DNA of 64,000 nucleotides from Eledone cirrhosa. Lineage: Eukaryota. A model generated the notes under the pieces. The model saw only the letters and a list, made by a program, of their open reading frames with translations, was not told where the DNA came from and searched no databases. Position numbers and translations under genes: made by a program. The stretch lies in contig CAXHJY010001396.1 of NCBI GenBank assembly GCA_964016885.1, forward strand, positions 1-64,000, in the 5' to 3' direction. Within the stretch, counting starts at the first letter, position 1, and each line of letters starts with the position of its first letter. Below, piece after piece: positions 14,435-46,276 of this stretch.

Positions 14435-14519
14435 CGGATTCTTTTCCCAAAACACCATTTTTTTTACTTGAAACAACTTTACGTTTCAGTTGTTTGATTT
14501 TTGAGTATTCATATTGCAC
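14435..14519 (-). CDS. ADAMTS-like catalytic-domain exon with a frameshift (VQYEYSKIKQLKRK / LFQVKKMVFWEKNP)
   Basis: ttttacag acceptor, CCG|gtacgt donor; 85 nt between two phase-0 neighbours; the two halves read sensibly in different frames. Confidence 0.75.
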
Positions 14520-14652
14520 CTGTAAAACATACATATTGCATCTGTGAAACATACATATTGCACCTGTAAAACATACATATTGCATCTGTGAAACATACAT
14601 ATTGCACCTGTAAAACATACATATTGAGCCTAGAAAACATACATATTGAGCT
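14510..14652. repeat. 22-bp minisatellite built from the splice acceptor of the 14435-14519 exon
   Basis: Alternating catattgcacctgtaaaacata / catattgcatctgtgaaacata, about 6 units. Confidence 0.9.
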
Positions 14653-14923
14653 TGTCAATAAATTACATCTGTTATTTCTGCCAACTTATACTTGTACAAT
14701 GGAAGCTATTACATAAAGGTGTCTCAAGCTAGAAATCTCAGTTCATTTCTCTGAGCCCCTATATAGTTATCAGAAATACTGCAGTCATGTTGTAGTGAGT
14801 ATCTATAGAGCGAAAAAATTATTTATCATTGTGTAGTCGTGAATAGAATTATCTGAAAGCAACTATAATGTGATATCTCATTGCATAACAGTATAATCAT
14901 GGCACCTAACTCGCGAATATAGT

Positions 14924-15052
14924 GAAGGCACATCGCTTAGTGGTTAGAGCGTTGGGCTTACAATCGTTAGGTTTTTAGTTCGATTACTGGACCGGGTGGT
15001 GCGTTGTGTCCTTGAGCAAGACACATTATTTCACGTTGCTCCACCTCACTCA
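14924..15052 (+). mobile_element. tRNA-derived SINE family B (others at ~12040-12200-, 37381-37600+, 40120-40430+)
   Basis: A-box (gcttagtggttagagcg) and B-box (gttcgatt), followed by the shared body gtgtccttgagcaagacac...tttcacgttgctcca. Confidence 0.8.
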
Positions 15053-16005
15053 TGGAAATTCTCTATGTGCAAATCCCCGAATCATTCGTGAACGAATGGA
15101 GTCTTTACAACTCGCGAATATCTATATAAAATTAAGTTAACACTCAATAAATAGGAAAACATTTTTCCATTAGTTAAAAAGGCAATAAAGTACGATTTTC
15201 TGCTGCGTCACATGTATGTATGGACCTGTAACTCTTGAGGGAGTCGTCGGGGCGCCGTATTGACATACGCCTTTTCTAGGACATTTTTAAACCTGACAGA
15301 GCCCATCTCCTCTCCAGGTCTGAATACAGCAGATTTCATCCAGAGAAGGCTAGTGAATGAGCGAAAGAAAGAGATATAGACGAAGAATCAACCCCAGTAC
15401 TAGACTGGTACTTCTTTTATCGATATTCAATGAATGAAGGGCAGAGTTGACATCGGCGGGATTTGAACTCAGAAAGCAGAGAATCGGAACGAATACTGTA
15501 AAGCAAAGGTTCTCAACCCATTTCGGCCAGACTCCCCCTTTTGCCCCTCGAAATCACGAAACGCCCCCTACCCTATTTTTCCATTTTTCAATATACTACT
15601 GATTTTCATATCAGTAGATTATTGGGCCAAAACAAGTTATGTTAGAATCTTTAAAAAATACTCGTACGAATTAAATACAAAAAAGTTTCAGAAGCAAGCT
15701 ATTTCAAGTTATATATTTTTGAAAAATAGACGTGAATGTTCTCAAAGATTTGATCTCCGTCGAAAAAGCTTTTTTTTTTAATTCTATATTTCACTGTTAG
15801 CTGTTGTAATATTTTGAGTGAATAGACAATTCTACAATTCAATTTCTTACCTTTCTCTGAAATAACAAACTCAGGGGGAAAATAATACCTTGCAAAATAA
15901 AATACTTCGTAGCAATATAAAATCCTTAGTAGCAACGAATGAATTGAGAAGCTTGGTGACAGTGAGAAAGCATTATCTGTATCCCTTATATATATACATA
16001 GATTG

Positions 16006-16059
<54 letters not shown>

Positions 16060-16079
16060 ATACATACATACATATATAC

Positions 16080-16110
<31 letters not shown>

Positions 16111-16484
16111 CATACATACATACATACATACATACATACATACATGCACACACACACTTGTGTGTGTACCTTGGTTTTGGTACAGAAAGAATTTTATCTC
16201 CAGTTTTTATTGCCAGGTCAAAGGCCACTGCTCTTTTCAACAACGCCAAATAACAACGCCTTATATAAATATATATATATGAAGAGAGAAAGAGGGAGGG
16301 ATAGAGAGAGTAAGGAATGTGTGTGTGTGTGTGTGTGTGTGTGAGTGTTTGGTACACGTTTAGCTATCTATTTATCTATCTCCAACAGGGGGCTCAAACA
16401 TGCGGCCCGCGAACTACTTTTCTGTGGCCCGTGGTAGAACCTATATATAGAAAAATATATATATATATATGTGTGTGTATAATA

Positions 16485-16517
<33 letters not shown>

Positions 16518-16601
16518 CATTACACACTTAAATATAAATGCATAGCTATATACATACGTAAGTGTATGTCTGTATATATATATATATATGTATCTATGTA
16601 G

Positions 16602-16671
<70 letters not shown>

Positions 16672-16688
16672 ATACTAATTCATCGCCG

Positions 16689-16737
<49 letters not shown>

Positions 16738-16741
<4 letters not shown>

Positions 16742-19044
16742 TAATTTAATATATCAACTAACATAGGCGCACAGATGCACGTCCATGCCAGCAAATACAC
16801 AGGTTATGTCATAGTACCTAGGTGGTTCAATGCAGGAGGGTGCAGAACAATAATATAAAAGACGTAAGATGAGAAAATATTTTTTAAAAAAATTTTTTTT
16901 AAATCTTTTACTTACTTACTTAAATTTTCACTCCAGCTAATTAGTTTCTGCAATGGGATAAAGACAGTTACGTAATCCAACTGTCGAGAATTCATTGCGT
17001 CATCAGGGAGTCTATTCTCAGCTGAGTCTCCAGGCAATGCGCGGACACTGGCGGCTCATATAAAAATAATAATAATTCGGTAGAAAGAACAGCTGGCGAG
17101 GACTGGATTCCATGTACTGAAATTCTCACTGCTTCTAGTCAAATGGCCGATTCTAAAGAATCAATCACGTGACACAGAGGCTAGTTAGAAGGAATGGGAT
17201 GGTAAGATGACTGACGCCTACTAACACCCCAAAAAAAATTTAGAAGTGGTTTTGGCAGGTTTGCTCGACAAATCAGTGATTTGGAGATAAATATAGATAA
17301 TTTAATATATCAACTAACATAGGCGCACAGATGCACGTCCATGCCAGCAAATACACAGGTTATGTCATAGTACCTAGGTGGTTCAATGCAGGAGGGTGCA
17401 GAACAATAATATAAAAGACGTAAGATAAGAAAATATTTTTTTAAAAAATTTTTAAAAAATCTTTTACTTACTTACTTAAATTTTCACTCCAACTAATTAG
17501 TTTCTGCAATGGGATAAAGACAGTTACGTAATCCAACTGTCGAGAATTCATTGCGTCATCAGGGAGTCTATTCTCAGTTGAGTCTCCAGGCAATGCGCGG
17601 ACACTGGCGGCTCATATAAAAATAATAATAATTCGGTAGAAAGAACAGCTGGCGAGGACTGGATTCCATGTACTGAAATTCTCACTGCTTCTAGTCAAAT
17701 GGCCGATTCTAAAGAATCAATCACGTGACACAGAGGCTAGTTAGAAGGAATGGGATGGTAAGATGACTTACGCCTACTAACATCCCAAAAAAAATTTAGA
17801 AGTGGTTTTGGCAGGTTTGCTCGACAAATCAGTGATTTGGAGATAAATATAGATAATTTAATATATCAACTAACATAGGCGCACAGATGCACGTCCATGC
17901 CAGCAAATACACAGGTTATGTCATAGTACCTAGGTGGTTCAATGCAGGAGGGTGCAGAACAATAATATAAAAGTCGTAAGATAAGAAAATATTTTTTAAA
18001 AAAAATTTTTTTTAAATCTTTTACTTACTTACTTAAATTTTCACTCCAACTAATTAGTTTCTGCAATGGGATAAAGACAGTTACGTAATCCAACTGTCGA
18101 GAATTCATTGCGTCATCAGGGAGTCTATACTCAGCTGAGTCTCCAGGCAATGCGCGGACACTGGCGGCTCATATAAAAATAATAATAATTCGGTAGAAAG
18201 AACAGCTGGCGAGGACTAGATTCCATGTACTGAAATTCTCTCTGCTTCTAGTCAAATGGCCGATTCTAAAGAATCAATCACGTGACCCAGAGGCTAGTTA
18301 GAAGGAATGGGATGGTAAGATGAGACTCAGCTGAGAATAGACTCCCTGATGACGCAATGAATTCTCGACAGTTGGATTACGTAACTGTCTTTATCCCATT
18401 GCAGAAACTAATTAGTTGGAGTGAAAATTTAAGTAAGTAAGTAAAATATTTTTTTAAAATTTTTTAAAAAAATATTTTCTTATCTTACGTCTTTTATATT
18501 ATTGTTCTGCACCCTCCTGCATTGAACCACCTAGGTACTATGACATAACCTGTGTATTTGCTGGCATGGACGTGCATCTGTGCGCCTATGTTAGTTGATA
18601 TATTAAATTATCTATATTTATCTCCAAATCACTGATTTGTCGAGCAAACCTGCCAAAACCACTTCTAAATTTTTTTTGGGGTGTTAGTAGGCGTCAGTCA
18701 TCTTACCATCCCATTCCTTCTAATTAGCCTCTGTGTCACGTGATTGATTCTTTAGAATCGGCCATTTGACTAGAAGCAGTGAGAATTTCAGTACATGGAA
18801 TCCAGTCCTCGCCAGCTGTTCTTTCTACCGAATTATTATTATTTTTATATGAGCCGCCAGTGTCCGCGCATTGCCTGGAGACTCAGCTGAGAATAGACTC
18901 CCTGATGACGCAATGAATTCTCGACAGTTGGATTACGTAACTGTCTTTATCCCATTGCAGAAACTAATTAGTTGGAGTGAAAATTTAAGTAAGTAAGTAA
19001 AAATTTTTTAAAAAATTTTTTAAAAAATATTTTCTTATCTTACG

Positions 19045-19051
<7 letters not shown>
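16738..19051. repeat. 556-bp tandem array (2.8 direct plus 1.3 inverted copies), retrozyme / Penelope pLTR-like
   Basis: The marker ataatttaatatatc recurs at 16741, 17297 and 17853; orientation flips at ~18323; bounded by (TA)n. Confidence 0.93.
18341..18422 (+). ncRNA. Type I hammerhead ribozyme (also at 18897-18978+, 16930-17011-, 17486-17567-, 18043-18124-)
   Basis: actcc-CTGATGA-c-gcaatg[...gacagtt/aactgtc...]cattgc-a-GAAA-ctaattag-TT-ggagt: stems I, II and a palindromic III are all present. Confidence 0.8.
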
Positions 19052-19136
<85 letters not shown>

Positions 19137-19174
19137 GTAGATTTACGTATATATATACACACACATATATATAT

Positions 19175-20244
19175 ATCTTCATCAGGCAGTAACGGTCCAC
19201 AGAATCAAAGGCCTTCCTAAAGTCAATGAAAACCATGACCGCAGGAAGGCAGTTTGCTCTGGCTTATGGAATCCCCAAGAGGATAGTGGACCTGATATCA
19301 CTGCTCTACACCAACACCAAAGCCCAAGTCATTACACCTGATGGGATGACAGAGTTCTTTGAGATACTGGCTGGAGTGCTCCAGGGAGATACATTGGCTC
19401 CCTACCTTTTTATCATCGTAGTGGACTATTGTATGCGCCTTGCACTGGAGAAACACCAGGACTCTGGCTTTACTGTAGCACCGGCTCAGAGCAGGAGAGT
19501 TGGGGCGAAAAAGGTATCGGATGCTGAATTTGCCGACGACATAGTTTTGGTGACAAATACAGTGAAGGAGGCAGAGGATTTGATGCGGGAGGTTGAGACT
19601 GTGTCGATGAGTGTGGGGCTGAGAATGAATGAGACTAAAACAAAATATCTGGGAGAGAATGTTGAGAAGCCAGAGGGGATCACTAATGTAGGCGGGAAGC
19701 CGCTGGAATTGGTTGAGGACTTCCTGTATTTGGGAGCAAAGATTGGGAATACGGAAGATGATGTGGTTGAGAGGAAGAGCAAGGCCTGGGCGGCGTGTCA
19801 CAGCTTGAGATCGGTGTGGAAGTCGGACCTTCGTAGAGACCTGAAAATCCGCCTCTTCATTGCTGTAGTGGAGTCTGTGCTGCTGTATGGGTCTGAGACT
19901 TGGACACTGACCAAGAGACTCACTCAGATGGTGGATGGGTGCTACACGAGAATGCTGAGGATGGCTCTGAACATTAATCAGTATACACTGAGGATGAAAA
20001 ACTCAGAGCTGTATGGGAGCATCCCAAAAGTCAGCTCAAAAGTGACACAGAGGAGACTGAGGTTGGCTGGACATGCTCACCGACATCCAGAGTTGACATT
20101 GCACTCAGTGCTCCTTTGGGAGCCCCTACATGGACACACTAGAAGAGGAAGACCAAGGTTAACATATGTTGATGCCCTAAGGACAGACACTGGTCTGTTG
20201 GAGATGCAGGATATGGCAGCGATAATGAGGGACAGAGACCGCTG

Positions 20245-20247
<3 letters not shown>
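19175..20247 (+). mobile_element. RTE-group LINE fragment (RT and C-terminus) with an inverted 5' segment
   Basis: ORF 19226-20323 has GVLQGDTLAPYLF, FADDI, FLYLG, LLYGSETW and RGRP; the preceding motif [14 protein letters not shown] lies on the minus strand at 19175-19255. Confidence 0.92.
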
Positions 20248-20306
<59 letters not shown>

Positions 20307-20523
20307 CATATATATATATATAAATATACATACATATATATATATATATAAATATACATACATATATGTATATATAAATATACATACATATATATATATA
20401 TAAATATACATACATACATATATATATATAAATATACATACATATATATATATATATATATAAATATACATACATACATATATATATATATAAATATACA
20501 TACATACATATATATATATAAAT

Positions 20524-20597
<74 letters not shown>

Positions 20598-21290
20598 CTA
20601 CATACATACATATTATATATATATATATATATATATATAATGTATAAAAATCAATACAAAATAATTACCTCATTACCAGAGGTTTCCCGAATAAAACGAA
20701 TACGAAAGAGACGTCTTCATTCGTTCGTCGGACGAGGCAATATAAAACATAAATATTTTGAAAGTCTCCTCAAGAAATGCAAGAAAAATTATATATATAT
20801 AGATGAAGGTAATACAATAGACATATAAAATATAAAATATATAAAAAAATATTATAAGAAATATATTTAGGTGTGTGTATATGTATGTATATACTCACAG
20901 ATATACATATGTATATATGTACAAATGCGTGTGTATAATGAAAATGTGTGCGTAAATATATGTATGAGGGCGAGAATATTTGTGTATATGTAACGATGGA
21001 CACACATGATATGAGTGTCTGTTTGACAGGTATCCAGAGAAAACAGGGTGTTAGATACGTTATAAGAATATGAAGGCACGAGTATAAACACACACGCACG
21101 CGCGTACACTTATATGCGGAAGAAAAAGAGGTAAGGGAATGTAATAGTAAAAAGAAAGTATCAATGTGCTAACGATTGCACCAGCTCGCGCCTTATTTTC
21201 ACCAGTTACAATGCGATATGAAATATTGGTTCTACCACGGGCCACAGATAAGTAGTTCGCGGGCCGCATGTGGAGATAAATAGATAGATA

Positions 21291-24200
21291 TGTTTCTTTT
21301 ATTTGCCACCAGGGCATCAAAAGTGGGACAAGTACAATGGGGGGAGTTTACAAAACAAGGCGTCCTCAATAGGGAGGAAGCAATAACAATATATAAAAAT
21401 AAAATAAAATATAACAAAAAATAAAATTATAACAAAATCCTCAATAGAGAGGAGGCGCCTTGGGGGGTCGCACACACCCCCGAAACAAGTGTGCAACCCT
21501 TCTCCTCAGGAGCACAGAGAGGCGGTGCTCCCTCGTTCCTTCCTCTTTTCCACCTACAGGCTTATGTAAAGAGAAGGCCCATTCACACGGGCCATTCTCG
21601 CCACTTTCACCCACCTTTCATAAAAACGACTGGGGTGGACCACCTCTCTCTCTCCATCCTGATCCTTCTTCCGAAATGATATCGGAAGAAACGGACCAGT
21701 TGTTGGCCAGAGAGAAAGGTGCTTGACCTCAGTCCTTTCAGACGCGTCCACCATACAACTTCTTTCACCATGGCTATTACGCACAGAAACACCGTCTCTC
21801 CTTCATCTTTGAAGGGGGGAGGCGGCTTGATCATTACAATAGATTCGGTGGTCAACCGGATCGGTCCCACCCTTGACAGCAGTTGTTCGACAAGCCCCAC
21901 AGATCGGCTACGCCCGAGCAGTGTACCAATGCGTGTGCAACGGTTTCCTCGTCGCACACGCATCTGGGACAGATCTTTTTGGCGGGGTCCCTACCCGGGC
22001 GCCCGTGTCTGTAGAGCTTTTCTCGAACGGGTAGAGCCCCTCGGTAGCACTGCCAGGCCAGGGACTTCTGGAAGTTGTCCATAGGTCCCGGGCTGAATGT
22101 CCTACTGAACAGGCTGGCCAGTTCGTCCTCCTCCATGTCTAGGGCTTCTCTGAGGGCGTCGTCGCACCTGCTGCGTACCAGCCCTCTATAGAATGTTGCG
22201 GTGGAGTCTCCACTGATAACCGGATCCGCCTGCCAGAGGGCGGTGAGCGCCTGGGCACACTCAGTGTGCCAGGCGCCCAGTTTTCTCGGTCTTTGCTTGA
22301 CCCAGGATTGCAGCTCGGTGAGTGAGACGAGTCTGGGAAAGGTTCGTCTCACAAACGAGGCCCACACCGGTTGACCGGTGAGGAATACGTAGATGTGCCG
22401 TAGCCTTAATGCGTGTTTACGCATCATTAGCCACGGCATCCCCAGCCCTCCTTTCGAAGGGTGTTGACAGCAGATGGATCTCCTCACCATAGGAGCCCGC
22501 CTCTTCCAAAGGAATTGGAAGAGCGCGCGCTCCATCTTGGCGAGGGTTTCCCTTGGGCAGGGCACTACGGTCAGGCGGTAGTAGATGACGGACGCTATAT
22601 AGGTGTTCGCCACCTCCGCCCGACCTTTCAGGGATATATGCAACTGGCCCACTTCTGGGTCAGTGCAAACACCCTGTTCGTAACCTCCGCCCAGTTTTTC
22701 TCCACCTGGAGGTCCGGTCCGAACCAGACCCCGAGCAACTTCACCGGGCCCTCCGTCCAGCGTCCGACGACGCCATCGGAGGGCATCGGTCTGCCCCTCC
22801 ACGTGCCGAGTTGCAAACCGATCGACTTGTCCCGGTTCAGCTTAGCCCCTGTGAACCTTTCGTACTCCTCCAGTAAGGTGCCGACCGCCTCGATTTCGGA
22901 GGCCGTCGACACTATTACTGTCACGTCATCGACGTAGGCCGACACCGCTTTCCGCAATCCCGGTTCCAAAGGGATGCCTTGCAACAACTCCAACTTCCGC
23001 AATAGTGGCTCGAGAGTCAACACATACAGATGGGAGGAGAGAGGGCACCCTTGTTGGATGGACCGCGCGATTTTGAACGGCTCCGAGAGGTAGCCGTTCA
23101 CCTTGACCCTAGAGCAGATGCGGCTGCTGTGCATAGCAGTCATCCAGCCCCTGAAAACGGGTCCGAAGCCTGCCGCCGCTAGCACCGCATCCAGGTAACC
23201 ATGGTCGACCCTATCGAACGCCTTAGATTGATCCAAGTTGATCAGAGCCCCACCAAAGCCAGGTTCGTTCCCAACCCTCTCTATGATGTATCACATGAGG
23301 TGGAGGTTGTCATGGATGGACCTGGACGGGATAGCGCATGTCTGCACATCTCCCACCAGGTTGCCCACGACAAGCGCCAACCTCTTTGCTAGCATCTTGG
23401 CCAAAATCTGTAACTCTGTATTTAGCAGAGTTATGGGCCTGAAGTTACTTATTTCGTCCCCCTTGTTCTCGTCCTTCCTCACTAGCGTGACTACGCCCTT
23501 GGTCACAGTACAGGGAATTCTCCCGTTCTGTTGCCAGTTGCAGTAGACCGCCTCGAGGAGATCGGGGAACAAGTCCGGCATAGCTAGATATAATTCGTAA
23601 GGAAGACCATCGAGACCCGGGGATTTGCGTTTGACGCATTGGCTCAGCACGTCCTCTATCTCAGCGGCCGAAATCGGCTCCTCGCAGGACTTCGCCTCCC
23701 TGTCCGAGAGACGCGGCAGGCCGTCGAGGTATGGACCGAAGTCCACATCCCCAACCGGCTCCCCGCCCCTTCCGAACAGTCGGGCAAAGTGCCTTTGAAA
23801 GACATCTGCTTAGGCTCAAGAATCGCCCGTCCATCCTGGTCTCGCAAAGACCGGATGGTGGATTTAGTTCCACTGTTGGCCTCTGTCACGCGGGCCCAGC
23901 TAACAGCTTTGGTCCCCTCGTTCCCTAGAGCACGTATTTTAATTCGGGCAACGCAGCCTTCGTGCTTTGCGTCGAAAAACTGGCTCAAAGCCGTTCTCGA
24001 CGCTAGCACTCTGGCTACGTCGCCGCTTCTAATTGCCTATTCTACTCTATCTATTAGCTCCCTTTCCTTCCTATTCCTATCCGCAGCTAGAACCTTACTA
24101 AATTCTATCGAGACTACTCTAATCTCTCTCTTTAGAGATACCCACCACCTGCTGTTGACGATCGCTCCAGTCAACCGTTCCTTAACTAACGTACTAATCC

Positions 24201-26736
24201 GATCCCTGTAAGCTCTACTTGCCGGCAAGGACAAGTTGAGCTTCCAGTAACCGGGGCCCTGTCTATGCGTTCTATCAAGGTTGACCATGTAGGTCACCAA
24301 CTTGTGGTCTGAATAGCCAACCATGAGCATTTCTGGACAACTTAAAAAGTCCCTGTCCTTATTTCTAACTAAAAATCTATCTAGGTACGACCTAGATGAT
24401 CCGCTGCGATTTGACCAAGACCAGGTTGGCACCGTCGGAAAATCTAGTCGAAATCTATCGGCCAGGTCAAATCGGCCGAGTAACCCCTTGAGGCTGTTGC
24501 ACCCCTCTCTATCGGGACATACCCCTGCATAGTCTCAACGGGCATCCAGGATATCATTCCAGTCCCCCACTAAAAGCAGGGAACGGGACGTCCCTAGAAA
24601 AGACTCCAGACGCTGGAAAAAGTCGGGCCGCTCTGTCCCAAAAGGGGCATATGCGGCTACCAGCCTAAAGGCTCCACCTTCACCACTGCCAAGGTCCAGC
24701 ACCACCAGTCGACCCCCTGGGTCCAAGTGAACTATCTGTGTTGCAAGGCCCAGATGTTTTTGCAGCAGAACGACAACCCCACCCCCACCTCCGGGCTGAC
24801 AGAGAGATGCGTGCATCTCAAAGTCGTCAAAGGTGGGTGCTAGCTGCCGCATGCTGCTGATCCGGGCCTCGCAGATAACCATCACATTTATAGATTGTGA
24901 CCTGAGGTCATTTAGAAGCATTGCTTGCTTCCAAGATGAGCCCAGGCCACGCGCATTTAGACACCCTACTCTTAGCACAGCCATGTTGGTGGTAAGGAGA
25001 AAAGGCACTTACCTCTCTGCGTCCCGGGAAACGGGCCGCTCAATTTCCATGCTGGTTGGGGATGGGTTTTTGGGTGGGGTGGTGGTTTGTGGAAGTGAAG
25101 GGGCATCAGTGTGTTGTGGGGTTGGGGTGTTTGTGGTTGAGTGGGTGTCTGAGTGGGGTGGGGGTGAAATTTTTTAGGAGGACGCGGTTGATTGGTTTGG
25201 CGCAGGGGGGGGGGGAGGGGCACGTCCTCCGTGAAATTTATTTTCAGTGTTTTGTAAAAGTTCATTGGGACTTTAATCATATTTAAATGAGGTAGTCCCA
25301 CAGCAGTTATAAAGTTAGGCCCTTCAGTTTGGACCGAAGGGTTTGCTGAAATTGTTTTCAGTAATTCTTTGTTGTCTGTGTTCATGTATGTATATTGTAA
25401 GGTCTTTTTTTGTGTAGCAGTTAGTGTTGTGTGACAGGGAGGAGTGGTTTGTGTGTAGTTTGTGTTCTCTTGGGGAGGGTTAAAGTTAACATGTGTGTCT
25501 GTGGTGCGTCTCCTCTTCTTTCTTTTTACTTGTTGGAAGGGATCTTTTTCGTCTTGCGACGAAAGGGGTTCGTCTTCCTTGTTGGGTGGGAGGGGTATGT
25601 TTTCTGGTAGTGTTTGCGGTGTGTGTGTTTTTGTATTTGTTTTGGGTGGGGAGGGATTTGGGTGGGACAGTATTCTGTGTTATTTTTTCACGTGTTTGTT
25701 GTTGTTGTTGTTGTTGTGGTGGTGGTGGTGGTGTTGGTTTTTGTTGTTGTTGTTGTTGTGGTTGTTTTTGTTGTTGTTGTTGGGGTTGTGTTGGTGTTGG
25801 TAGCAGTGTTTTTTTCTGTGTGAGCTGGGGACAGGCAGCCCTCAGGTGACCTCTATTGCCACAGAGGTAACAGGAGGGACGCCTACCCTCCACAATAGTT
25901 AATCCTTTTGTATGAAAGTGAAGTCTCTCATCGCTTCTTTCAGTACTAACTGAATGTCAGCTTGAGATGGTTGTGCTGGTTTTTTTGTTTTATTTAAAAT
26001 TGTACGGAATACGACAGTTCGTAATTCCGTCTGTTTTTTTAGTTCTGGAGGTGAATTTATAGAAAACGAACCGTTTTCGCCAAAAGATATATATTTCTTG
26101 GCTTTTTCCAGCATTTGAAATATCTTCAAGCACATACGTGACTGATAATTTAGCCGTTTGTGCAAAAGATATTTTGTTTTCGTTGTTGGTGTTTGTATTG
26201 TTTTGTTTCTCGTCGTTTGAGTTGTTTTCATCTTTGTTGTTGTTGTTGTCTTTCTCGTTTGGTGTGTGGATACTTGTGACGTTTGTGTTGTTGTTGTTTT
26301 TGTTGTCTTTATTGTTGCTGTTGTTGTCGTTGTTGTTGTTGTTGTTTTCAGTTTCTTGTATAGTTGTGGCTACATCTAGTGGTCGGTCAACAGGTGAAGA
26401 CAATTCTTCCTCTGGCTGACCTCTGCCTTTGGCATCTGCTGCTGTGACAGTGGCAGGGGGAAGCTGTGAGTATAACTTCCCCTTTCCTTCTTTGATTGTT
26501 GGTGAAGATGCTTCAGCCATTTTTCTCAAAATAGGGTTTTTCGAAATTTTTCGAAAGATAAAATGTTTACAATACTATTTCGCCCAAAGGCGCAGAATAT
26601 TTTGAGAGACCGACCAGATCAAAATTTGACCTGGCAGTCCCTCTACAAAATGGTACAAAAATGAAAGTTTACAGTTCACAATTTCCGGATAAATTTAAAC
26701 GAAACTTACCGAGCGAGCTCAGCACATGTGTCCATC
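21291..26736 (-). mobile_element. Tx1-like (L1 group) LINE, copy 1: full-length ends, frameshifted, ORF1 internal deletion
   Basis: APE (CLNARG, GDWN, SDH), RT (PGLDG, LDQSKAFD, QGCPLS, YVDD), C-terminal CPRC...HALVHC; ORF1 knuckle CYLCGNRGHLRAAC. Confidence 0.93.
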
Positions 26737-26751
26737 GTAAAGAGTTAGATA

Positions 26752-29700
26752 TGTTTCTTTTATTTGCCACCAGGGCATCAAAAGTGGGACAAGTACAAAG
26801 GGGGGAGTTTACACAAAAAGGCGTCCTCAATAAGGAGGAGGCAATAACAATATATAAAATAAAATAAAATATAACAAAAATAAAATTTATAACAAAATCC
26901 TCAATAGAGAGGGGGCGCCTTGGGGGGTCGCACACTCCCCCGAAACAAGTGTGCAACCCTTTTCCTCAGGAGCACAGAGAGGGGGTGCTCCCTCGTTCCT
27001 TCCTCTTTTCCACCTACAGGCTTATGTAAAGAGAAGGCCCATTCCCACGGGCCATTCTCACCACTTTCACCCACCTTTCATAAAAACGACTGGGGTGGAG
27101 CACCTCTCTCTCCATCCTGATCCTTCTTCCGAAATGATATCGGAAGAAACGGACCAGTTGTTGGCCAGAGAGAAAGGTGCCTGACCTCAGTCCTTTCAGA
27201 CGCGTCCACCATACAACTTCTTTCACCATGGCTATTACGCACAGAAACACCGCCTCTCTTCATCTTTGAAGGGGGGAGGCGGCTTGATCATTACAATAGA
27301 CTCGGTGGTCAACCGGATCGGTCCTACCCTTGACAGCAGTTGTTCGACATAGCCCCACAGATCGGCTACGCCCGAGCAGTGTACCAATGCGTGTGCAACG
27401 GTTTCCTCGTCACACACGCATCTGGGACAAATCTTTTTGGCGGGGTCCCTACCCGGGCGCCCGTGTCTGTAGAGCTTTTCTCGGACGGGTAGAGACCCTC
27501 GGTAGCACTGCCAGGCCAGGGACTTCTGGAAGTTGTCCATAGGTCCCGGGCTGAATGTCCTACCGAACAGGCTGGCCAGTTCGTCCTCCTCCATGTCTAG
27601 GGCTTCTCCGAGGGCGTCGTCGCACCTGCTGCGTACCAGCCCTCTATAGAATGTTGCGGTGGAGTCTCCACTGATAACCGGATCCGCCAGCCAGAGGGCG
27701 GTGAGCGCCTGGGCACACTCAGTGTGCCAGGCGCCCAGTTTTCTCGGTCTTTGCTTGACCCAGGATTGCAGCTCGGTGAGTGAGACGAGTCTGGGAAAGG
27801 TTCGTCTCACAAACGAGGCCCACACCGGTTGACCGGTGAGGAATACGTAGAGGTGCCGTAGCCTTAATGCGTATTTACGCATCATTAGCCACGGCATCCC
27901 TAGCCCTCCTTTCGAAGGGTGTTGACAGCAGATGGATCTCCTCACCATAGGCGCCCGCCTCTTCCAAAGGAATTGGAAAAGCGCACGCTCCATCTTGGTG
28001 AGGGTTTCCCTTGGGCAGGGCACTACGGTCAGGCGGTAGTAGATGATGGACGCTATATAGGTGTTCGCCACCTCCGCCCGACCTTTCAGGGATAGTTTGC
28101 AACTGGCCCACTTCTGGGTCAGTGCAAACACCCTGTTCGTAACCTCCGCCCAGTTCTTCTCCACCTGGAGGTCCGGTCCGAACCAGACCCCGAGTAACTT
28201 CACCGGGCCCTCCGTCCAGCGTCCGGCGACGCCATCGGAGGGCATCGGTCTGCCCCTCCACGTGCCGAGTTGCAAACCGATCGACTTGTCCCGGTTCAGC
28301 TTAGCCCCTGTGAACCTTTCGTACTCCTCCAGTAAGGTGCCGACCGCCTCGATTTCGGAGGCCGTCGACACTATTACTGTCACGTCATCGGCGTAGGCCG
28401 ACACCGCTTTCCGCAATCCCGGTTCCAAAGGGATGCCTTGCAACAACTTCCGCAATAGTGGCTCGAGAGTCAACACATACAGATGGGAGGAGAGAGGGCA
28501 CCCTTGTTGGATGGACCGCGCGATTTTGAACGGCTCCGAGAGGTAGCCGTTCACGTTGACCCTAGAGCAGATGCGGCTGCTGTGCATAGCAGTCATCCAG
28601 CCCCTGAAAACGGGTCCGAAGCCTGCCGCCGCTAGCACCGCATCCAGGTAACCATGATCGACCCTATCGAACGCCTTAGATTGATCCAAGTTGATTAGAA
28701 CCCCACCAAAGCCGGGTTCGTTCCCAACCCTCTCTATGATGTATCGCATGAGGTGGAGGTTGTCATGGATGGACCTGGACGGGATAGCGCATGTCTGCAC
28801 ATCTCCCACCAGGTTGCCCACGACAAGCGCCAACCTCTTTGCTAGCACCTTGGCCAAAATCTGTAACTCTGTATTTAGCATAGTTATGGGCCTGAAGTTA
28901 CTTATTTCGTCCCCCTTGTTCTCGTCCTTCCTCACTAGCGTGACTACGCCCTTGGTCACAGTACAGGGAATCCTCCCGTTCTGTTGCCAGTTGCAGTAGA
29001 CCGCCTCGAGGAGATCGGGGAACAAGTCCGGCATAGCTAGATATAATTCGTAAGGAAGACCATCGAGACCCGGGGATTTGCGTTTGACGCATTGGCTCAG
29101 CACGTCCTCTATCTCAGCGGCCGAAATCGGCTCCTCGCAGGACTTCGCCTCCCTGTCCGAGAGACGCGGCAGGCCGTCGAGGTATGGACCGAAGTCCACA
29201 TTCCCAACCGGCTCCCCGCCCCTCCCGAACAGTCGGGCAAAGTGCCTTTGAAAGGCCTCACACATCTTCTTAGGCTCAAGAATCGCCCGTCCATCCAGGT
29301 CTCGCAAAGACCGGATGGTGGATTTAGTTCCACTGTTGGCCTCTGTCACGCGGGCCCAGCTAACAGCTTTGGTCCCCTCGTTCCCTAGAGCACGTATTTT
29401 TCTTCGGACAACGCAGCCTTCGTGCTTCGCGTCGAAAAACTGGCTCAAAGCCTTTCTCGACGCTAGCACTCTGGCCACTTCGCCGCTTCTAATTGCCTCT
29501 TCTACTCTATATATTAGCTCACTTTCCTTCCTATTCCTATCCGCAGCTAGAACCTTACTAAATTCTATCGAGACTACTCTAATCTCTCTCTTTAGAGATA
29601 CCCACCACCTGCTGTTGACGATCGCTCCAGTCAACCGTTCCTTAACTAACGTACTAATCCGATCCCTGTAGGCTCTACTTGCCGGCAAGGACAAGTTGAG

Positions 29701-30197
29701 CTTCCAGTAACCGGGGCCCTGTCTATGCGTTCTATCAAGGTTGACCATGCAGGTCACCAACTTGTGGTCTGAGTAGCCAACCATGAGCATTTCTGGACAA
29801 CTTAAAAAGTCCCTGTCCTTATTTCTAACTAAAAATCTATCTAGGTACGACCTAGATGATCCGCTGCGATTTGACCAAGACCAGGTTGGCACCGTCGGAA
29901 AATCTAGTCGAAATCTATCGGCCAGGTCAAATCGGCCGAGTAACCCCTTGAGGCTGTTGCACCCCTCTCTATCGGGACATGCCCCTGCATAGTCCCAACG
30001 TGCATCCAGGATACCATTCCAATCCCCCACTAAGAGCAGGGAACGGGACGTCCCTAGAAAAGACTCCAGGCGCTGGAAAAAGTCGGGTCGCTCTGTCCCA
30101 AAAGGGGCATATGCGGCTACCAGCCTAAAGGCTCTACCTTCACCACTGCCAAGGTCCAGCACCACCAGTCGGCCCCCTGGGTCCAAGTGAACTATCT
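26752..30197 (-). mobile_element. Tx1-like LINE, copy 2: 5'-truncated within the endonuclease
   Basis: 983-aa ORF 27235-30186 with an intact YADD; near-identical to copy 1; frameshift close to the C-terminus. Confidence 0.95.
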
Positions 30198-30512
30198 ATA
30201 GATAGATAGCCACTAGTCGACCCCCTGGGTCCAAGTGAACTATCTATAGATAGATAGATATGTTTCTTTTATTTGCCCCCAGGGCATCAAAAGTGGGACA
30301 AGTACAATTGGGGGAGTTTACAAAACAAGGCGTCCTCAATAAGGAGGAGGCAATAACAATATATAAAAATAAAATAAAATATAACAAAAAATAAAATTTA
30401 TAACAAAGTCCTCAATAGAGAGGGGGTCGCACACACCCCCGAAAAAAGTGTGCAACCCTTCACCTCAGGAGCACAGAGAAGGGGTGCTCCCTTGGTCTTT
30501 CATCTTCCTCAC

Positions 30513-33500
30513 CTATAGTCTGATGTAGAGTGAAGGCCCATTCACACGGGCCATTCTCGCCACTTTCACCCATCTTTCATAGAAACGGCTGGGGTGCAGC
30601 ACCTCTCTCTCCATCCTGATCCTTCTTCCGAAATGATATCGGAAGAAACGGACCAGTTGTTGGCCAGAGAGAAAGGTGTCTGACCTCAGTCCTTTCAGAC
30701 GCGTCCACCATACAACCTCTTTCGCCATGGCTATTACGCACAGAAACACCGCCTCTCCTTCGTTTTTGAAGAGGGGAGGCGGCTTGATCGTTACAATAGA
30801 CTCGGTGGTCAACCGGATCGGTCCCACCCTTGACAGCAGTTGTTCGACATAGCCCCACAGATCGGCAATGCCCGAGCAGTGTACCAATGCGTGTGCAACG
30901 GTTTCCTCGTCGCACACGCATCTGGGACAGACCTTTTTCGATGGGTCCCTACCCGGGCGCCCGTGTCTGTAGAGCCTTTCTCGAACGGGCAGAGCCCTTC
31001 TGTAGCATTGCCAGGCCAGGGACCTCTGGAAGTTATCCATGGGTCCCGGGCTGAATGTCCTACCGAACAGGTTGGCCAGTTCGTCTTCCTCTATGCCTAG
31101 GGCTTCTCCGAGGGCGTCGTCGCACCTGCTAACCACCAGCCCTCTATAGAATGACGAGGTGGATTCTCCACTGACAGCCGGGTCCACCTGCCAGAGAGCC
31201 GTGAGCGCCTGGGCACACTCGGTGTGCCAGGCGCCCAGTTTTCTCGGTCTTTGCTTGACCCAGGATTGCAGCTCGGTGAGTGAGACGAGTCTGGGAAAGG
31301 CTCGCCTCACAAACGGGGCCCACACCGGTTGACCGGAGAGGAATACCTGAAGGTGCCGTAGCCTTAATGCGTGTTTACGTATCATCAGCCACAGCATCCC
31401 CAGCCCTCCTTTCGAAGGGTGTTGACAGCAGATGGATCTCCTCACCATAGGAGCCCGCTTCTTCCAAAGGAATTGGAAGAGTGCGCGCTCCATTTTGGCG
31501 AGCGTTTCCCTTGGGCAAGGCACCACGGTCAGGCGGTAGTAGATGACGGACGCTATATAAGTGTTCGCCACCTCCGCCCGACCTTTCAGGGACAGTTTGC
31601 ACTCGGCCCACTTCTGGGTCAGTGCAAACACCCTGCTCGTCACCTCACCCCAGTTCTTCTCCACCTGGAGGTCTGGTCCGAACCAGACCCCGAGCAATTT
31701 CACCGGGCCCTCCGTCCAGCGCCCGACGACGCCATCGGAGGGCATCGATCTGCCCCTCCACGTGCCAAGTTGCAGACCGATCGACTTGTCCCGGTTCAGC
31801 TTAGCCCCTGTAAACCTTTCGTACTCCTCCAGTAAGGTGCCGATCGCCCCGATTTCCGAGGCCGTCGACACCATTACTGTTACGTCATCGGCTTAGGCTG
31901 ACACCGCTTTCCGCAATCCCGGTTCCAACGGGATGCCCTGCAACAACTCCAACTTCCGCAGCAGTGGCTCTAGAGTCACTACATACAGAAGGGAGGAGAG
32001 AGGGCACCCCTGTCGGATGGACCGCGCGATTTCGAACGGCTCCGAGAGATAGCCGTTCACCTTGACCCTAGAGCAGATGCGGCTGCTGTGGATGGCATTG
32101 ATCCAGCCCCTGAAAACGGGTCCGAAGCCTGCCGCCGCTAGCACCGCATCCAGGTAACCATGGTCGACCCTATCGAATGCCTTAGATTGATCCAAGTTGA
32201 TCAGGGCCCCACCAAAGCCGGGTTCGTTCCCAACCCTCTCTATGATGTATCGCATGAGGTGGAGGTTATCGTGGATGGACCTGGACGGGATAGCACATGT
32301 CTGCGCATCTCCCACCAGGTTGCCCACGACAAGCGCCAACCTCTTTGCTAGCACTTTGGCCAAAATCTGTAACTCTGTATTTAGCAGAGTTATGGGCCTG
32401 AAATTATTTATATCGTCCCCCTTGTTCTCGTCCTTCCTCACTAGCGTGACTACGCCCTTGGTCACAGCACAGGGAATTCTCCCGTTCTGTCGCCAGTTGC
32501 AGTAGACCGCCTCGAGGAGTTCGGGGAACAAGTCCGGCATAGCTAGATATAGTTCGTATGGAAGACCATCGAGACCCGGGGATTTGCGTTTGCCGCATTG
32601 GCTCAGCACGTGCTCTATCTCAGCGGCTGAAATCGGCTCCTCGCAGGACTTCGCCTCCCTGTCCGAGAGACGCGGCAGTCCGTCGAGGTATGGACCGAAG
32701 TCCACGTCCCCAACCGGCCCCCCGCCCCTTCCGAACAATTCGGCAAAGTGCTTTTGAAAAGCCTCGCACATCTGCTTAGGTTCAAGGATCACCCGTCCAT
32801 CCTGGTCTCGCAAAGACCGGATAGTGGATCTGCTCCCTCTTTTGGCTTCTGTCACGCGGGCCCAGCTAACAGCTTTGGTCCCCTCGTTTCCCAGAGCACG
32901 TATTTTGCTTTGGACGATGCAGCCTTCGTGTTTCGCGTCGAAGAACTGGCCCAGGGCCGTTCTCGACGCTAGCACTCTGGCCACGTCGCCGCTTCTAATT
33001 GCCTCTTCTACACTATCTACCAAGTCCCTTTCCTTCCTATGTCTATTGGAGGCTAACTCCTTACTAAATTCTATAGAGACTACTCTAATCTCTCTTTTGA
33101 GAGATCCCCACCACCTGCTGTTGACGATGGCGCCCGTCAACCGCTCCTTAACTAAAGTGCTAATCCGGTTCCTGTAAGCCTTACTTGCCGGTAAGAACAA
33201 GTTGAGCTTCCAGTAACCGGGTCCCTGTCTATGAGTTCTGTCAAGGTTGACCATGCAGGTCACTAATTTGTGGTCTGAATAGCCAACCATGCGCATTTTT
33301 GGACAACTTAAAAAGTCCTTATCCTTAATTCTAACTAAGAACCTATCTAGGTACGACCTAGATGTTCCGCTACGATTTGCCCAAGTCCAGGTTGGCGCAG
33401 TCGGAAAATCTAGTCGATATCTATCGGCCAGGTCAAATCGACCGATTAACCCTTTGAGGCTATTACACCCCTCTCTATCGGGACAGGCCCCTACGTAGTC

Positions 33501-33974
33501 CCAGCGTGCATCTAGGATACCATTCCAGTCCCACACTAATAGCAAGGAGCGGGACGTCCCTAGAAAAGTCTCCAGACGATGGAAGAAGTCCGGCCGCATT
33601 GACCCGAAAGGGCCGTAGGCGGCTACCAACCTAAACGCTCCGCCTTTACCACTGCCAAGGTCCAGAACCACTAGTCGACCCTCCGGGTCCAAATGTACCA
33701 TCTGTGTTGCGAGATCCAGATGTTTTTGCAACAGAACGACAACTCCACCCCCACCTCCGGGCTGACAGAGAGATGCGTGCATCTCAAAGTCATCAAAAGT
33801 GGGGGCCAGCTGTCGCACGTTGCTGATCCGGGCCTCGCAAATAACCATCACATCTATACGTTGTGACCTGAGGTCATTTAGAAGCATTGCTTGCTTCCAA
33901 GTTGAGCCCAGGCCACGCGCATTTAAACAGCCTACTCTTAGCATAGCCATGTTGGTGGTGAAGAGAAAAGGCAC
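30513..33974 (-). pseudogene. Tx1-like ORF2 (APE-RT-CCHC) with a nonsense codon replacing the Y of YADD
   Basis: Copy 3 reads VSA*ADDV where copy 2 reads VSAYADDV. Confidence 0.9.
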
Positions 33975-35756
33975 TTACCTCTCTGCGTCCCGGGTATCGG
34001 GCTGAACAATTTCCATTAGGGTGGGGGATGGGTTGTTGGGTGGGGTGGTGGTTTGTGGAAGTGTAGGGGCATCAGTGTGGTGTGTGGTTGGGGAGCTTGG
34101 AGTTGTGTGGGTGTTTGGGGAGGGCGTGGGATAGTTTTTTAGGAGGACGCGGTTAATGGGCCCGACGCAGGGGGGACCCACGTCCTCTTTAAAATTGTTT
34201 TTTAAAGTTTTATAGGTGTCCTGTGGGGCCTTAATCATTTTGAGGTGGGGGAAATCCCCTGCCTGGGTGAAGTTAGGCCCTTGTGTTTTTATTAGATTGT
34301 TGTACACAATGTTTAACAGTTTTTTGTTTCTTGTGTTTATGTATGTGTATGCATGTTTTTGTTTTTGTGTGGTGTTTTTTGTTTGCTGTTGTTGTGAGCT
34401 CTTTTGTGTTGGTGTCAGTGTTATGTTTTGGGGAGGGGTTGTTTTCATTTGTGTGTCTGAGGTGTGTTTTCTTTTTTTTCTTTTGATTGTGTGGAAGTGC
34501 TCCTCCTCGTCTGACGACGAACTAGGGTCATCTTCCGCGTTGGAGGGGAGGGGTATATTTTCGGGTTGTGTTTGCGGTACGGGTGTTTTGGAAATTGTTT
34601 TTGTTTTTTGAGTGGAGGGGATGGGTTGGACATTGTTTTGTTTTGGTTTGAGCTGTGGTGGTTGTTTTTGTAGTTGTAGTTGTGGTGATTGTGTTGGTTG
34701 TGCAGTTGTTGGTGGTGTAGGCAGGATTGGGGTTTTCTTATTAAGTTGGGGACAGACAGCCCTCGGGTGACCTCTGGTTCCGCAGAGGTAACACGAGGGC
34801 CGTCTACCCTCAACGGTAATGTTGATGAAGGTTAGATCATCCAGTATGACGCGTTCAGGGATCTGGGCGATCCTTTCGGGCCTCATTTGAACTACAAGTT
34901 CGAGGCTCGTTCCACTGAACGCGTCACCCGATGCCTTTCCCATGGACACCAGCATGTCATCCTCCAGGTCCAGAAAACCTGTCAAAACCCACCATATGTC
35001 CATAATCGGCAGGATGGTGTGGATTTTTATTTTTTGTGTTCTTCTACCCATGTACGTAGGGTAGAAGGTGTATGCGGTGGATGTGATTGGTTTGATGGAC
35101 AGTTTCACTGCTGTGTCCCTGTCCTTCATGAGAATGGATAGACTCCCGTAGAGTCTATCCTTCTGAATGAAGGTGATGTCCTTCATGACGTCTTTTAAAA
35201 CCAGCTCTATCTCACTCTGTGATGGTTGAGCTGGTTTTTTACTTTTGTTCGAGATTGTCCTAAACATGACCGTGTTTAGGAGTCTCTGGCTTTTTAGTTC
35301 CGGGGGGGGATGGATTGTGAATGAACCATTTTCTCCGTACACTATATATTTTTTCGCATCTGCCAGTAGCTCCTTCGCTTTGGTTATATCTACTGGCAGA
35401 TAGTCGAGGGTTTTACTTGTCGTCTCGGCGAAGGAGAAATTTTGTTTGTTTGTGTTGTTGTTGTCGTTGGTGGTGTTGTTGTTATCATTGTTGTTGTTGT
35501 CACCGTTATTGGTCTTGTTGTTGTTGTTATTGTTATTGGTGTTGTTTTCGTCCGTCGCATTGTTGTTGTTGCTGTTGCTGCTGGTTCTTTGGGTTGTTGC
35601 CATGGCAACGTCAAGTTGTCGGTTAACAGGTGGAGAGAATTCTTCCTCTGGCTGACCTTTCTTCTTGACCTCTGCTACTGTGACAGTGGCAGGGGGAAAC
35701 TGTAAGTTTACCTTCCCCTTTCCTCCTTCGAATTTTGGTGAAGAAGCTTCGGCCAT
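33975..35756 (-). CDS. Tx1-like ORF1 (zinc-knuckle nucleic-acid chaperone)
   Basis: CYLCGTRGHPRAVC knuckle, poly-N and P/Q/T low-complexity tracts, KRKKRK. Confidence 0.88.
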   Translation of the reverse strand: MAEASSPKFEGGKGKVNLQFPPATVTVAEVKKKGQPEEEFSPPVNRQLDVAMATTQRTSSNSNNNNATDENNTNNNNNNNKTNNGDNNNNDNNNTTNDNNNTNKQNFSFAETTSKTLDYLPVDITKAKELLADAKKYIVYGENGSFTIHPPPELKSQRLLNTVMFRTISNKSKKPAQPSQSEIELVLKDVMKDITFIQKDRLYGSLSILMKDRDTAVKLSIKPITSTAYTFYPTYMGRRTQKIKIHTILPIMDIWWVLTGFLDLEDDMLVSMGKASGDAFSGTSLELVVQMRPERIAQIPERVILDDLTFINITVEGRRPSCYLCGTRGHPRAVCPQLNKKTPILPTPPTTAQPTQSPQLQLQKQPPQLKPKQNNVQPIPSTQKTKTISKTPVPQTQPENIPLPSNAEDDPSSSSDEEEHFHTIKRKKRKHTSDTQMKTTPPQNITLTPTQKSSQQQQTKNTTQKQKHAYTYINTRNKKLLNIVYNNLIKTQGPNFTQAGDFPHLKMIKAPQDTYKTLKNNFKEDVGPPCVGPINRVLLKNYPTPSPNTHTTPSSPTTHHTDAPTLPQTTTPPNNPSPTLMEIVQPDTRDAER

Positions 35757-36090
35757 TTAAAAAAATATTGACTTTTCAACAAGAAAAATCTTTTTTTTTT
35801 TGTTTAACTATTTCGCCTAAAGGCGTAGAATATTTTGAGAGACTGACCAGATCAAAGTTTGACCTGGCAGTCCCTCTACAAAATGGTCCAAAAATTAAAG
35901 TTATCAGACAAGAATTTCTATAGAAATTTAAACAGAACTTACTCAGCAAGTTATACGCGTGTGTCCATCCCAGAGATACATAGATTAGATAGATAGATAG
36001 ATAGACGTGAACCAAACACACACACATTTCTTACTCTCTCTGTCCCTCCCTCTTTCTCTCTTCATTTATATATATATATATGGGGGGTGC

Positions 36091-36153
<63 letters not shown>

Positions 36154-36305
36154 TGCGTGTGTGTGTGTGTGTGTGTGGAGCGTTGTTATTTGGCGTTGTT
36201 GAAAAGAGCTGTGGCCTTTGACCTGGCAATAAAAAACTGTAGACAAAATTCTTTCTGTACCCAAACCAAGGCACACACCCTCACAAGTTTGTGTGTGTGT
36301 GTATG

Positions 36306-36355
<50 letters not shown>

Positions 36356-38591
36356 TATCTATATTTATATATAAGGGATAAAAATATTGCTTTCTCAGTC
36401 ACCAAGCTTCTCAATTGATTCCTTACTACTTATTTTGCTACCAGGTATATTATTTTGCAAGGTACTATTTTTCCCATAAGTTTGTGATTTCAGAGAAAGG
36501 TAAGAAATTCTTCATATTTTGCATCTTTTGTATTTTGACTTTGCAGTTTCAATTGTCTATCCACTCAAAATATTACAACAGCTAACAGTGAAATATAGAA
36601 TTTAAAAAAAAAAAGCTTTTTCGACTGAGATCAAATGTTTTTTTTAATTTCAAAAATATATCATTTGAAATAGCTTGCTTTTTTTTTGGACTTAAACTCT
36701 TTTGTATTTAATTCGTACGAGTATTTTTTAAACAATCTAAGATAACTTGATTTGGCCCAGTAATCTACTGATATCAAAATCAGTAGTATATTGAAAAATG
36801 GAAAAATAGGGTAGGGGGGGGGGGGCGTTTCGTAATTTCGAGGGGCAAAAGGGGGCGTTTGGCCAAAATGGGTTGAGAACCTTTGCTGTAAAGCATTCTA
36901 TTTGACGTTCTAACCACTGCCAATTCGCCATCTGGTCCATCATATAATATCTATCAAATTTTTTACGTCAGAAAGAGGGAGATTCAATTCTAGACAAAGA
37001 ATTACCACTCGTTGTTTATATACACCTTTCTAGTGAGTAGCGGGAGAGGGGCAACACCCAAGACCTTTTCAGGCCTTCACATATTGGTGAGATGAATGTA
37101 ATTTATGTTCATATTGGAGTTCTGTAGATTAACGTCTATTTGAAAACGAGGATAAGAATATTCAGTGGAGTGTGAAGTAAAAAGGATTGGTAAAAGTAGT
37201 TTTAAATGTTTGGAGAAGTGAAACTCAGAAGAGGGTGACAAAAGGGGGGATGATGGGACCTAGAATAGATTAGGAAGGAAAAAATATGCAACTGCCTTCT
37301 GAAGATGATGGGGAGTTATTATAGCTAGCCGTAAAAATACAGAGATTAGAAACATTTTGTCCGTAAAATATTGATTTCTTGAAGGCGTATGGCCTAGTGG
37401 TAAGTGTGTTCTTGACCAAAACACTTTGTTTCACATTGCTCAGCATACTCATCGAAATGAGTATCAGCAATACCTGAGGATTTAACACTGCGATGGACTG
37501 GCGCCCTTTCCAGGGAGGAGTCTTGTACTCTTGGTCACTTCACGCCACGGAAATCGGGATAAGCACCGGCTTGATGAACCTCCATCTCCGAGACAGACTT
37601 TTAGACTAGTGATTATTGTGAGAGAAATTTAGTGAAACAGACAAATAACCTTGTTTTAGGATGACTGTGCCTAGCGACAGTACCGCACCAATAGTGCGAG
37701 GAGTACTCTATTGTAGGTCATATATGTGCTTTGTATTTTATGTCTCCATATTTTATATTTAGCTTCTGGGATGCAGTGTTACAAATGTACGATCTTCATG
37801 AAAACTCATCAGATATTATGAGGTCCAGTATTTTTAGAGTGTTTAACCTTTTTAGTGCTGTAGGCGAGATAACTCGTCCTAACATTTTTTAACTCTTTTC
37901 CAACAGTTCATAACTTCAAAGTTATGAAGTCGTTTCCAAAAGTTCATAACTTCAAAGCTAAATGGGGTTACTAGTTTATTGATGTGACGTTTGTCAATCA
38001 TTCAGATATGTGTTGTTAATAAATGTTTGCTTTAAAAAATAGTCATTTTACTGGAAAATATACGCGGTAGTCAACAGGTTAAAGGATTTGGTTTTATGTT
38101 GTTTGTAAGTAGAGAGAGTATTTAAAGATTCTATGTATAGTAATAATGTTTTAATGCTGTTAAAGGAAATTAGTTTATCATACCCTCGTTGGAGAGTGTT
38201 TTGTTTTTTCTTAAGTCAGCAATGAGGTGTCTATGTTGCGTATGTCCGGGAGGTTTAGGAGAACTAAAGAGTGATGTAATCTTCAGAGATGTGTGTGTGT
38301 TGTGACAGTAGAATCATTACGGTATAAAAGAAAGTGTGTAAGAGACATAACCGAAACCAGAAGTAGATCGTCATTGATCGCCATTGGAGTAGAATGGAGT
38401 ACCGGTGACACACGTTGCGGTGAAGCAGGTCTAAAATTTGAAAGATCAATACAGCCCAATATGATCAGCTTAACCTGTTATAGTTGAAGATGTTATTGTT
38501 GGTTTTGTTAAGATCGTCATAGTTTAATCCTTGGTCAGCTCTGGCTGAGCAGACCTGTGATCAAAAGTATTGCAGCCATGACGATGTTCTC

Positions 38592-42606: not shown

Positions 42607-43041
42607 TAAAATAAAGTTAAATAAAAGTCAAATGATTAAAATTTAGCTTCGTTTATTACTGCTATATATATTTCAGTGACAGCCATCTTTGGCTGTGACC
42701 TCTTCAGGCAGTTTGAATTAGTATGGTATAGACAAGTACATATGTTGTTTAGGTGTATGATATTGTCAATACTCTGATATGCCCAGTTCCTTGTTGGGTT
42801 GTTAATTCACTGGGGAACTGGAGTCATATGACTCCAGTTCCCCAGTGAATTAACAACCCAACAAGGAACTGGGCATATCAGAGTATTGACAATATCATAC
42901 ACCTAAACAACATATGTACTTGTCTATACCATACTAATTCAAACTGCCTGAAGAGGTCACAGCCAAAGATGGCTGTCACTGAAATATATATAGCAGTAAT
43001 AAACGAAGCTAAATTTTAATCATTTGACTTTTATTTAACTT

Positions 43042-43048
<7 letters not shown>
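42607..43048. repeat. Perfect 442-bp spacerless palindrome
   Basis: Centre ggagtcat|atgactcc at 42827/42828; the arms match to taaaataaagttaaat / atttaactttatttta. Confidence 0.95.
42943..42997 (+). ncRNA. Type I hammerhead ribozyme (mirror copy at 42658-42712, - strand)
   Basis: actgc-CTGAAGA-g-gtcacagcca/tggctgtcac-t-GAAA-tatata-TA-gcagt. Confidence 0.82.
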
Positions 43049-43077
<29 letters not shown>

Positions 43078-43079
<2 letters not shown>

Positions 43080-46270: not shown

Positions 46271-46276
46271 TGTCAC

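Follow-up and report, generated by a model that had tools for sequence, protein, structure and literature searches.

A mirrored hAT-type element, probably inserted as one unit

The window, a stretch of 64,000 nucleotides of Eledone cirrhosa DNA (contig CAXHJY010001396.1), holds at 15504-36885 what is probably a non-autonomous hAT transposon of Buster/Charlie type, one end of which was duplicated to both sides, and which was amplified in that form, inserted here at a size of about 2.5-3.3 kb and later inflated. This explanation was favored because the target site duplication (TSD) has a central TA, the flanks rejoin into one SINE, both arm types are multi-copy, and no outward-facing inner ends were found. 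Judged by its sequence, the element likely behaves as a non-autonomous hAT with foldback-type ends, and its Buster membership is putative. The more specific proposal, that this is an amplified hAT family mobilized with the same end on both sides, its ~0.9-kb chimeric terminal inverted repeats (TIRs) joining a Buster-type end to captured microsatellite DNA and to the terminus of another hAT, can be offered only tentatively. The preferred explanation agrees with two of its rivals, an inverted composite and a separately inserted MITE (both described below), that a long-mirrored unit was inserted in one step; the three differ on the origin of the mirror and on family status.

The 8-mer CTGTAAAG lies directly outside both ends (15496-15503 on the left and 36886-36893 on the right), in agreement with the exact 8-bp TSD reported in a preliminary description of this DNA. 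It occurs twice on the plus strand and once on the minus strand of the 64 kb, and its probability by chance, given the composition of the flanks, was 2.3e-5. The direct repeat extends two bases (CA) past the 8-mer, which is caused by the target continuing with CA; the boundary was fixed by the symmetry of the ends, both of which carry CAAAGGTTCTCAACCCATTT. The 20 terminal bases are identical at the two ends of 15504-36885. Along with the 8-bp TSD, the TIRs start with CA and end with TG, which bears out the hAT-type ends described earlier, and the termini may be of Charlie/MER58 type. The target site is quasi-palindromic, and its TSD, as one site and not a consensus, agrees with the Buster pattern nnnTAnnn (PMC3517528).

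When the interior was removed, the flanks formed one minus-strand tRNA-type SINE, as had been proposed. The break falls between two motifs that we take to be A-box-like and B-box-like. The 3′ part of the SINE, with the B-box-like motif and the tail, is the insertion target (15199-15495, minus strand) and showed very high depth in all four public runs described below; the 5′ head, with the A-box-like motif, lies at 36894-36930 (minus strand). Aligned with three further SINE copies from the window, this 37-bp head scored 48, 41 and 36, compared with 26-27 for the best of 1000 shuffles each. The rejoined SINE and the TSD therefore indicate that all of 15504-36885 arrived in, or grew within, one insertion.

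Structure of the inverted arms

The left arm (15504-16441) mirrors 35988-36885 together with 21228-21287, microsatellites included, as noted before. Outside the microsatellites, 47 of 671 aligned sites (7.0%) differ, in addition to indels. On the plus strand the left arm is composed of an outer hAT-like end of multi-copy family sequence (15504-15985), a microsatellite-rich middle with CA, ATAC, TA, TG and TATC repeats and unique spacers that is mirrored in the right arm (15986-16385), and a complete, inward-facing second hAT-like terminus (16386-16441). The right arm, on the minus strand, has an outer part with the same outer terminus at its end (35970-36885) and an inner piece in which the second terminus is followed by a TAGA repeat (21228-21289). 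The preliminary description had placed a second hAT-like terminus in each arm. This was confirmed on the left, where it is complete and is the single match in the window at up to three mismatches, but not fully on the right, where 14 bp are missing, the terminal CAGGGG among them; the remainder differs from the left copy at one of 44 positions. No clear extension of the mirror was found inside the inner termini, where only low-complexity TA matches occurred, and a single arm alone showed no folding signal (z -0.46). The arms are inverted over hundreds of bases, as in foldback-type elements, and internal tandem subrepeat arrays of the foldback type are absent; the only repeats in the arms are microsatellites and a 20-bp unit present about twice.

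Both termini of each arm point inward, and a search of the element at up to two mismatches revealed no partner end facing outward. The arm is therefore read as two nested ends and not as a self-contained element. This weakens the earlier suggestion of two inverted copies moved as a composite. In such an event, in the style of double-Ds, two copies from related subfamilies would have become inverted elsewhere, lost their other ends and moved a single time by means of the two outer ends. In its favor, the right inner piece carries about 12 bp more of family-like sequence, as would be expected from truncation of the left copy. On the other hand, the element holds no internal partner terminus of the outer or the inner type at the same tolerance, the inner terminus is intact on one side only, extra deletions are required, and both copies would have to share the microsatellites and the second terminus. 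In its original form the composite therefore lacks support, and as a one-off event we consider it unlikely.

A second rival splits the structure differently: a hairpin hAT of ~1.75 kb would have received a separate MITE (16386 to ~21285) at its center, and the inner mirror would be the TIRs of that MITE. The near identity of the inner termini would fit, as would the unlikeness of the outer and inner terminal motifs and the presence of a similar end on its own at 41740-41787. However, the MITE would have had to insert within ~10 bp of the palindrome axis, one difference in 44 is not significantly lower than the average for the arms (p 0.18), and ATCTCCAA has no direct repeat on the right, though a deletion there could have removed one. 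The separate MITE is rated as improbable, more so than the composite. For the preferred explanation, substitutions were compared between the outer part (36/460) and the inner non-microsatellite parts (11/211); with a Fisher p of 0.26, there is no sign of the inner part being younger than the outer. The end at 41740-41787 is itself a further inner-type hAT-like end, 85% similar, and has no partner within the window.

The outer arm is a multi-copy family

Contigs from four (X2, X4, X11 and X12) of 16 listed public runs were compared with 14700-16005 at 80% likeness. X11 and X12 are one sample (organism C), possibly the source of the window, and do not count as independent support; they show 0-1 differences from the unique flank in 251 bases. 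The contigs from these runs identify the outer ~500 bp of the arm as a multi-copy family. The ratio of outer arm depth to unique-flank depth was 113-3,161 in X11 and 198-4,886 in X12, values that give summed contig depth and not copy number. The arm depth in organism C peaks over the outer 120 bp, the most abundant part of the family, and declines inward; tens of separate contigs fall on arm positions among the matches listed.

Arm variants were read from the rows listed, the best 40 of 254 for substitutions and the best 12 of 23 for indels. The listed loose ends of the contigs (24, with 2,410 more) and joints (15, with 400 more) were mostly SINE matches. The two arms differ by substitution at 39 sites within 15504-16005, nine of them among the matches listed. 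At eight of these nine the family letter equals the right arm (92-100% of depth), so that these eight are private changes of the left arm, and the ninth mostly equals the left. The 8-bp deletion of the right arm made up 452 of 2,693 depth in X12 and was absent from the row of X11, while its 2-bp deletion made up 327 of 3,139 and 550 of 4,700; both deletions sit in contigs at 14-33 times single-copy depth. Both arm types thus occur at other places, so that an origin of the mirror at this locus is improbable. Variants at 15931 and 15950 were found in the family and in neither arm.

The share of right-type indels was 10-17% of depth where seen, and 23% at 15924 in X12. With one arm of each type per copy about 50% would be expected, and the lower share counts against the preferred explanation; shorter derivatives and contig clipping could be its cause. 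For the one-off composite, two multi-copy arm types in unequal shares (10-23% against the rest) are what two subfamilies would give. The same data speak to a further rival, in which an ordinary hAT with two different ends acquired its mirror only after insertion, through gene conversion or an inverted duplication at the site. The interior is unstable, with a younger fold-back at 18322 and expanded TA tracts, which would suit such an origin, but the arms differ in family-level indel states, each of them multi-copy, and copying in place would equalize the arms. We regard a mirror made in place as very improbable. No second full copy of the element, no transposase gene and no autonomous partner were seen, which was counted against the preferred explanation; the contigs show both arm types as multi-copy without revealing whether they are paired. 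Exact pattern scans of metagenome and genome contigs, mostly prokaryotic, gave 0 matches and are no evidence either way.

In organism B, the flank matched over 14800-15198 with 49 differences in ~394 bases and the match stopped at the SINE tail; the contig has 148 further non-matching letters past 15198, and B has almost no arm sequence. Because the match ends at 15198 and the arm is nearly missing, these data are consistent with the SINE and the element being later insertions. In organism A, arm-like sequence was found at ~85-91% identity, with no flank match. The spread is patchy: arm-like sequence is present in A and C and nearly absent in B, and it is B, not A, that has the flank and an extended SINE part in common with C. 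Horizontal transfer may underlie this pattern, as may loss or lineage-specific amplification. A coverage hole near 15120 in organism C was not counted as evidence.

Probably later inserts and the estimated original size

An array of LINEs (21290-35969, 14,680 bp) splits the right arm, matching the 14.7 kb given before. It comprises three head-to-tail L1-group LINEs on the minus strand: the first (21290-26736, 5,447 bp), the second (26751-30197), which is 5′-truncated and 97% alike to the first, and the third (30260-35969, 5,710 bp). They encode endonuclease and RT domains, with the APE-RT ORF2 and CCHC ORF1 of the L1 group; the best match of the LINE protein among solved structures was L1 ORF2p (E 5e-43), and the ORF1 of the third LINE carries one CCHC knuckle. 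The 3′ end of every LINE abuts a TAGA-type repeat, and the matching TATC tract of the left arm has no insert. We infer that the three belong to the Tx1 clade. LINEs of this clade target microsatellites or DNA transposons, as described for Kibi, Koshi, Tx1L in Tx1D and Tx1-Mar (PMC4494074). The three LINEs, of presumed Tx1 membership, resemble them in the L1-group endonuclease-RT protein, in the single CCHC knuckle in ORF1 and in the stacking of all three copies at a TAGA repeat within a DNA transposon; their target may be TAGA in general or this transposon in particular. Families that have expanded in coleoid genomes include L1-Tx1 and RTE-BovB, and hAT-Charlie also occurs there (PMC8967140).

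Between the arms, a TA-rich tract (16442-16740, TRF) is followed by an array of a 556-bp unit (16741-19049), with 2.9 tandem copies and then 1.3 inverted copies, the flip lying at 18322/18323. The array is joined to TA tracts at both ends, and it is probably younger than the arms because its copies are 95-98% alike. Between TA tracts lies a 5′-truncated non-LTR RT fragment (19177-20247, plus strand; RVT_1 E 4.5e-11, DUF6451), which we take to be RTE-like. An unmirrored core of ~590 bp (20640-21227) has no similar sequence elsewhere in the window and no exon candidate. The same 11-bp motif was observed beside TA tracts at 16596 (plus), 19135 (plus) and 20593 (minus), with related tandem variants at ~20310-20520.

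With the inserts removed, 3,322 bp remain, or ~2,500 bp when the TA-rich tracts are also taken out; both values suit the ~3-kb element with long chimeric inverted arms that had been proposed. The one-sided position and low divergence of the inserts suggest that they came later than the insertion, which is likely for the retroelements, as was also the earlier view. Buster activity falls between 5.1 and 8.5 kb of cargo (PMC12637253), and a jump at 21 kb is therefore less likely. No transposase domain was detected in the six ORFs scanned (five with Pfam hits and one without) of the 18 ORFs of at least 150 aa in the element, and Rfam gave 0 matches in 14500-38000.

Proposed history and known systems

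From the observed ends, TSD, rejoined SINE, mirror, inserts and multi-copy outer arm, we infer five steps and their order. In the first, one end of a progenitor would have combined hAT end sequence (~480 bp) with microsatellite-rich DNA (~400 bp) and the terminus of another hAT. Gap repair would then have placed a copy of this end on the opposite side, through template switching or conversion, as described for the extension of Galileo TIRs. Third, the symmetric element would have multiplied while its arms gained the diagnostic indels, and fourth, one copy would have been inserted here as a single unit by a transposase supplied from elsewhere. Finally, the arms would have decayed separately, the TA tracts would have gained the 556-bp array and the RT fragment, and the three L1/Tx1-like LINEs would have inserted into the right arm at its TAGA repeat.

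The element was compared with Buster-family non-autonomous hATs such as the Drosophila Mar MITE, with which it shares the nnnTAnnn 8-bp TSD, the CA...TG ends, the lack of its own transposase gene and many short end copies (PMC3517528). This source gives nnnTAnnn as the Buster TSD consensus and, for typical hATs, TIRs of 5-27 bp and elements below 4 kb. Here, in contrast, ~0.9 kb is mirrored, outside that short range, with microsatellites and a second terminus as part of the mirror. The hAT superfamily has long TIRs on record already, since hATm-6_RP and hATm-6_CV have TIRs of 417 and 575 bp; these elements resemble the present one in their long TIRs, are described as autonomous, and were compared by description (PMC6004678). 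No long-TIR or palindromic Buster/Charlie element of such architecture was found among the papers that the literature searches listed, and the family may already be catalogued in Repbase or Dfam.

According to PMC4168063, the TIRs of Galileo, a foldback-like element of the P superfamily, grow by recruiting internal DNA, and inserted TEs pass from one TIR to the other. The likeness lies in long inverted arms that absorb non-TIR sequence and TE pieces in both arms. Galileo differs in its 7-bp TSDs and P-type transposase, and family-wide pairing is shown for Galileo whereas a single locus was read here. Moreover, the present arms, unlike those of Galileo (PMC4168063), have no tandem subrepeat arrays. 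Hermes with two left ends was nearly inactive in cells (bioRxiv 10.1101/2022.09.16.508221), a result that speaks against symmetric hAT ends moving readily.

If an amplified family with two same ends is true, TIR extension in the style of Galileo would reach the Buster group, in contrast to Hermes. If the paired form is a family, it would offer a natural experiment on the handling of symmetric ends by hAT transposases, and Galileo would not be alone in recruiting foreign DNA to both TIRs. Long inverted arms also provide substrates for ectopic recombination. If the structure is a one-off, it would be a tidy four-level nesting (SINE, hAT, TA-tract inserts and LINE stack) of little wider importance.

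Host gene and predicted RNA duplex

The whole element lies in an intron of ~24.5 kb (14523-39016, minus strand) of an M12B/ADAMTS-like metalloprotease gene with Reprolysin and TSP_1 domains, whose exons span 1567-55922 on the minus strand. The exons that flank the element on either side align collinearly with protein P0039, and the splice sites are GT at 39016 and AG at ~14523. The upstream exon had no homologue when searched alone and was placed only through P0039. An assembly artefact, by a fold-back read or a misjoin, was also considered. The window does contain a perfect 442-bp palindrome elsewhere, and no contig among those listed spans the SINE-arm junction with the letters of this locus. 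However, the arms differ at 7% of sites and by indels, the TSD and the SINE rejoin are exact, and the host exons continue collinearly on both sides; such an artefact is scarcely credible.

As the two arms share one intron, they are expected to pair into a long RNA duplex. The pre-mRNA duplex of the arms was predicted at -625 kcal/mol, compared with -137 kcal/mol for the best of 20 shuffles, and it could be a substrate for ADAR editing. If an amplified family with two same ends exists, each intronic copy would also form long double-stranded RNA. No exon candidates were found in the arms or the core, in a scan that is weak and also missed the real exon near 14522; with no exon between the arms, no direct splicing effect is implied. 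A 22-bp tandem repeat (14510-14648, 6.3 copies) duplicates the 3′ splice site and provides five successive AG candidates. Within the exon at ~14435-14522 the P0039 match shifts frame in a stretch rich in homopolymers, which may be either an assembly error or a broken gene.

Other repeats were observed in the window. The perfect 442-bp palindrome (42607-43048) has no spacer and adjoins a TA tract; it may be an inverted Penelope-like end or an assembly artefact. A degraded non-LTR element with an RT match (43079-46280) has a C-terminal motif that we assume to be a restriction-like endonuclease (CRE-like). Two RT-like regions at 56553-61463, with a weak RVT_1 match (E 0.01), are presumably Penelope-like, and a 333-bp tandem repeat occupies 57637-58447. 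Satellite arrays were found at 48430-55683 (unit of ~50 bp, 148 copies) and at 1688-4462 (26-bp unit, 100 copies).
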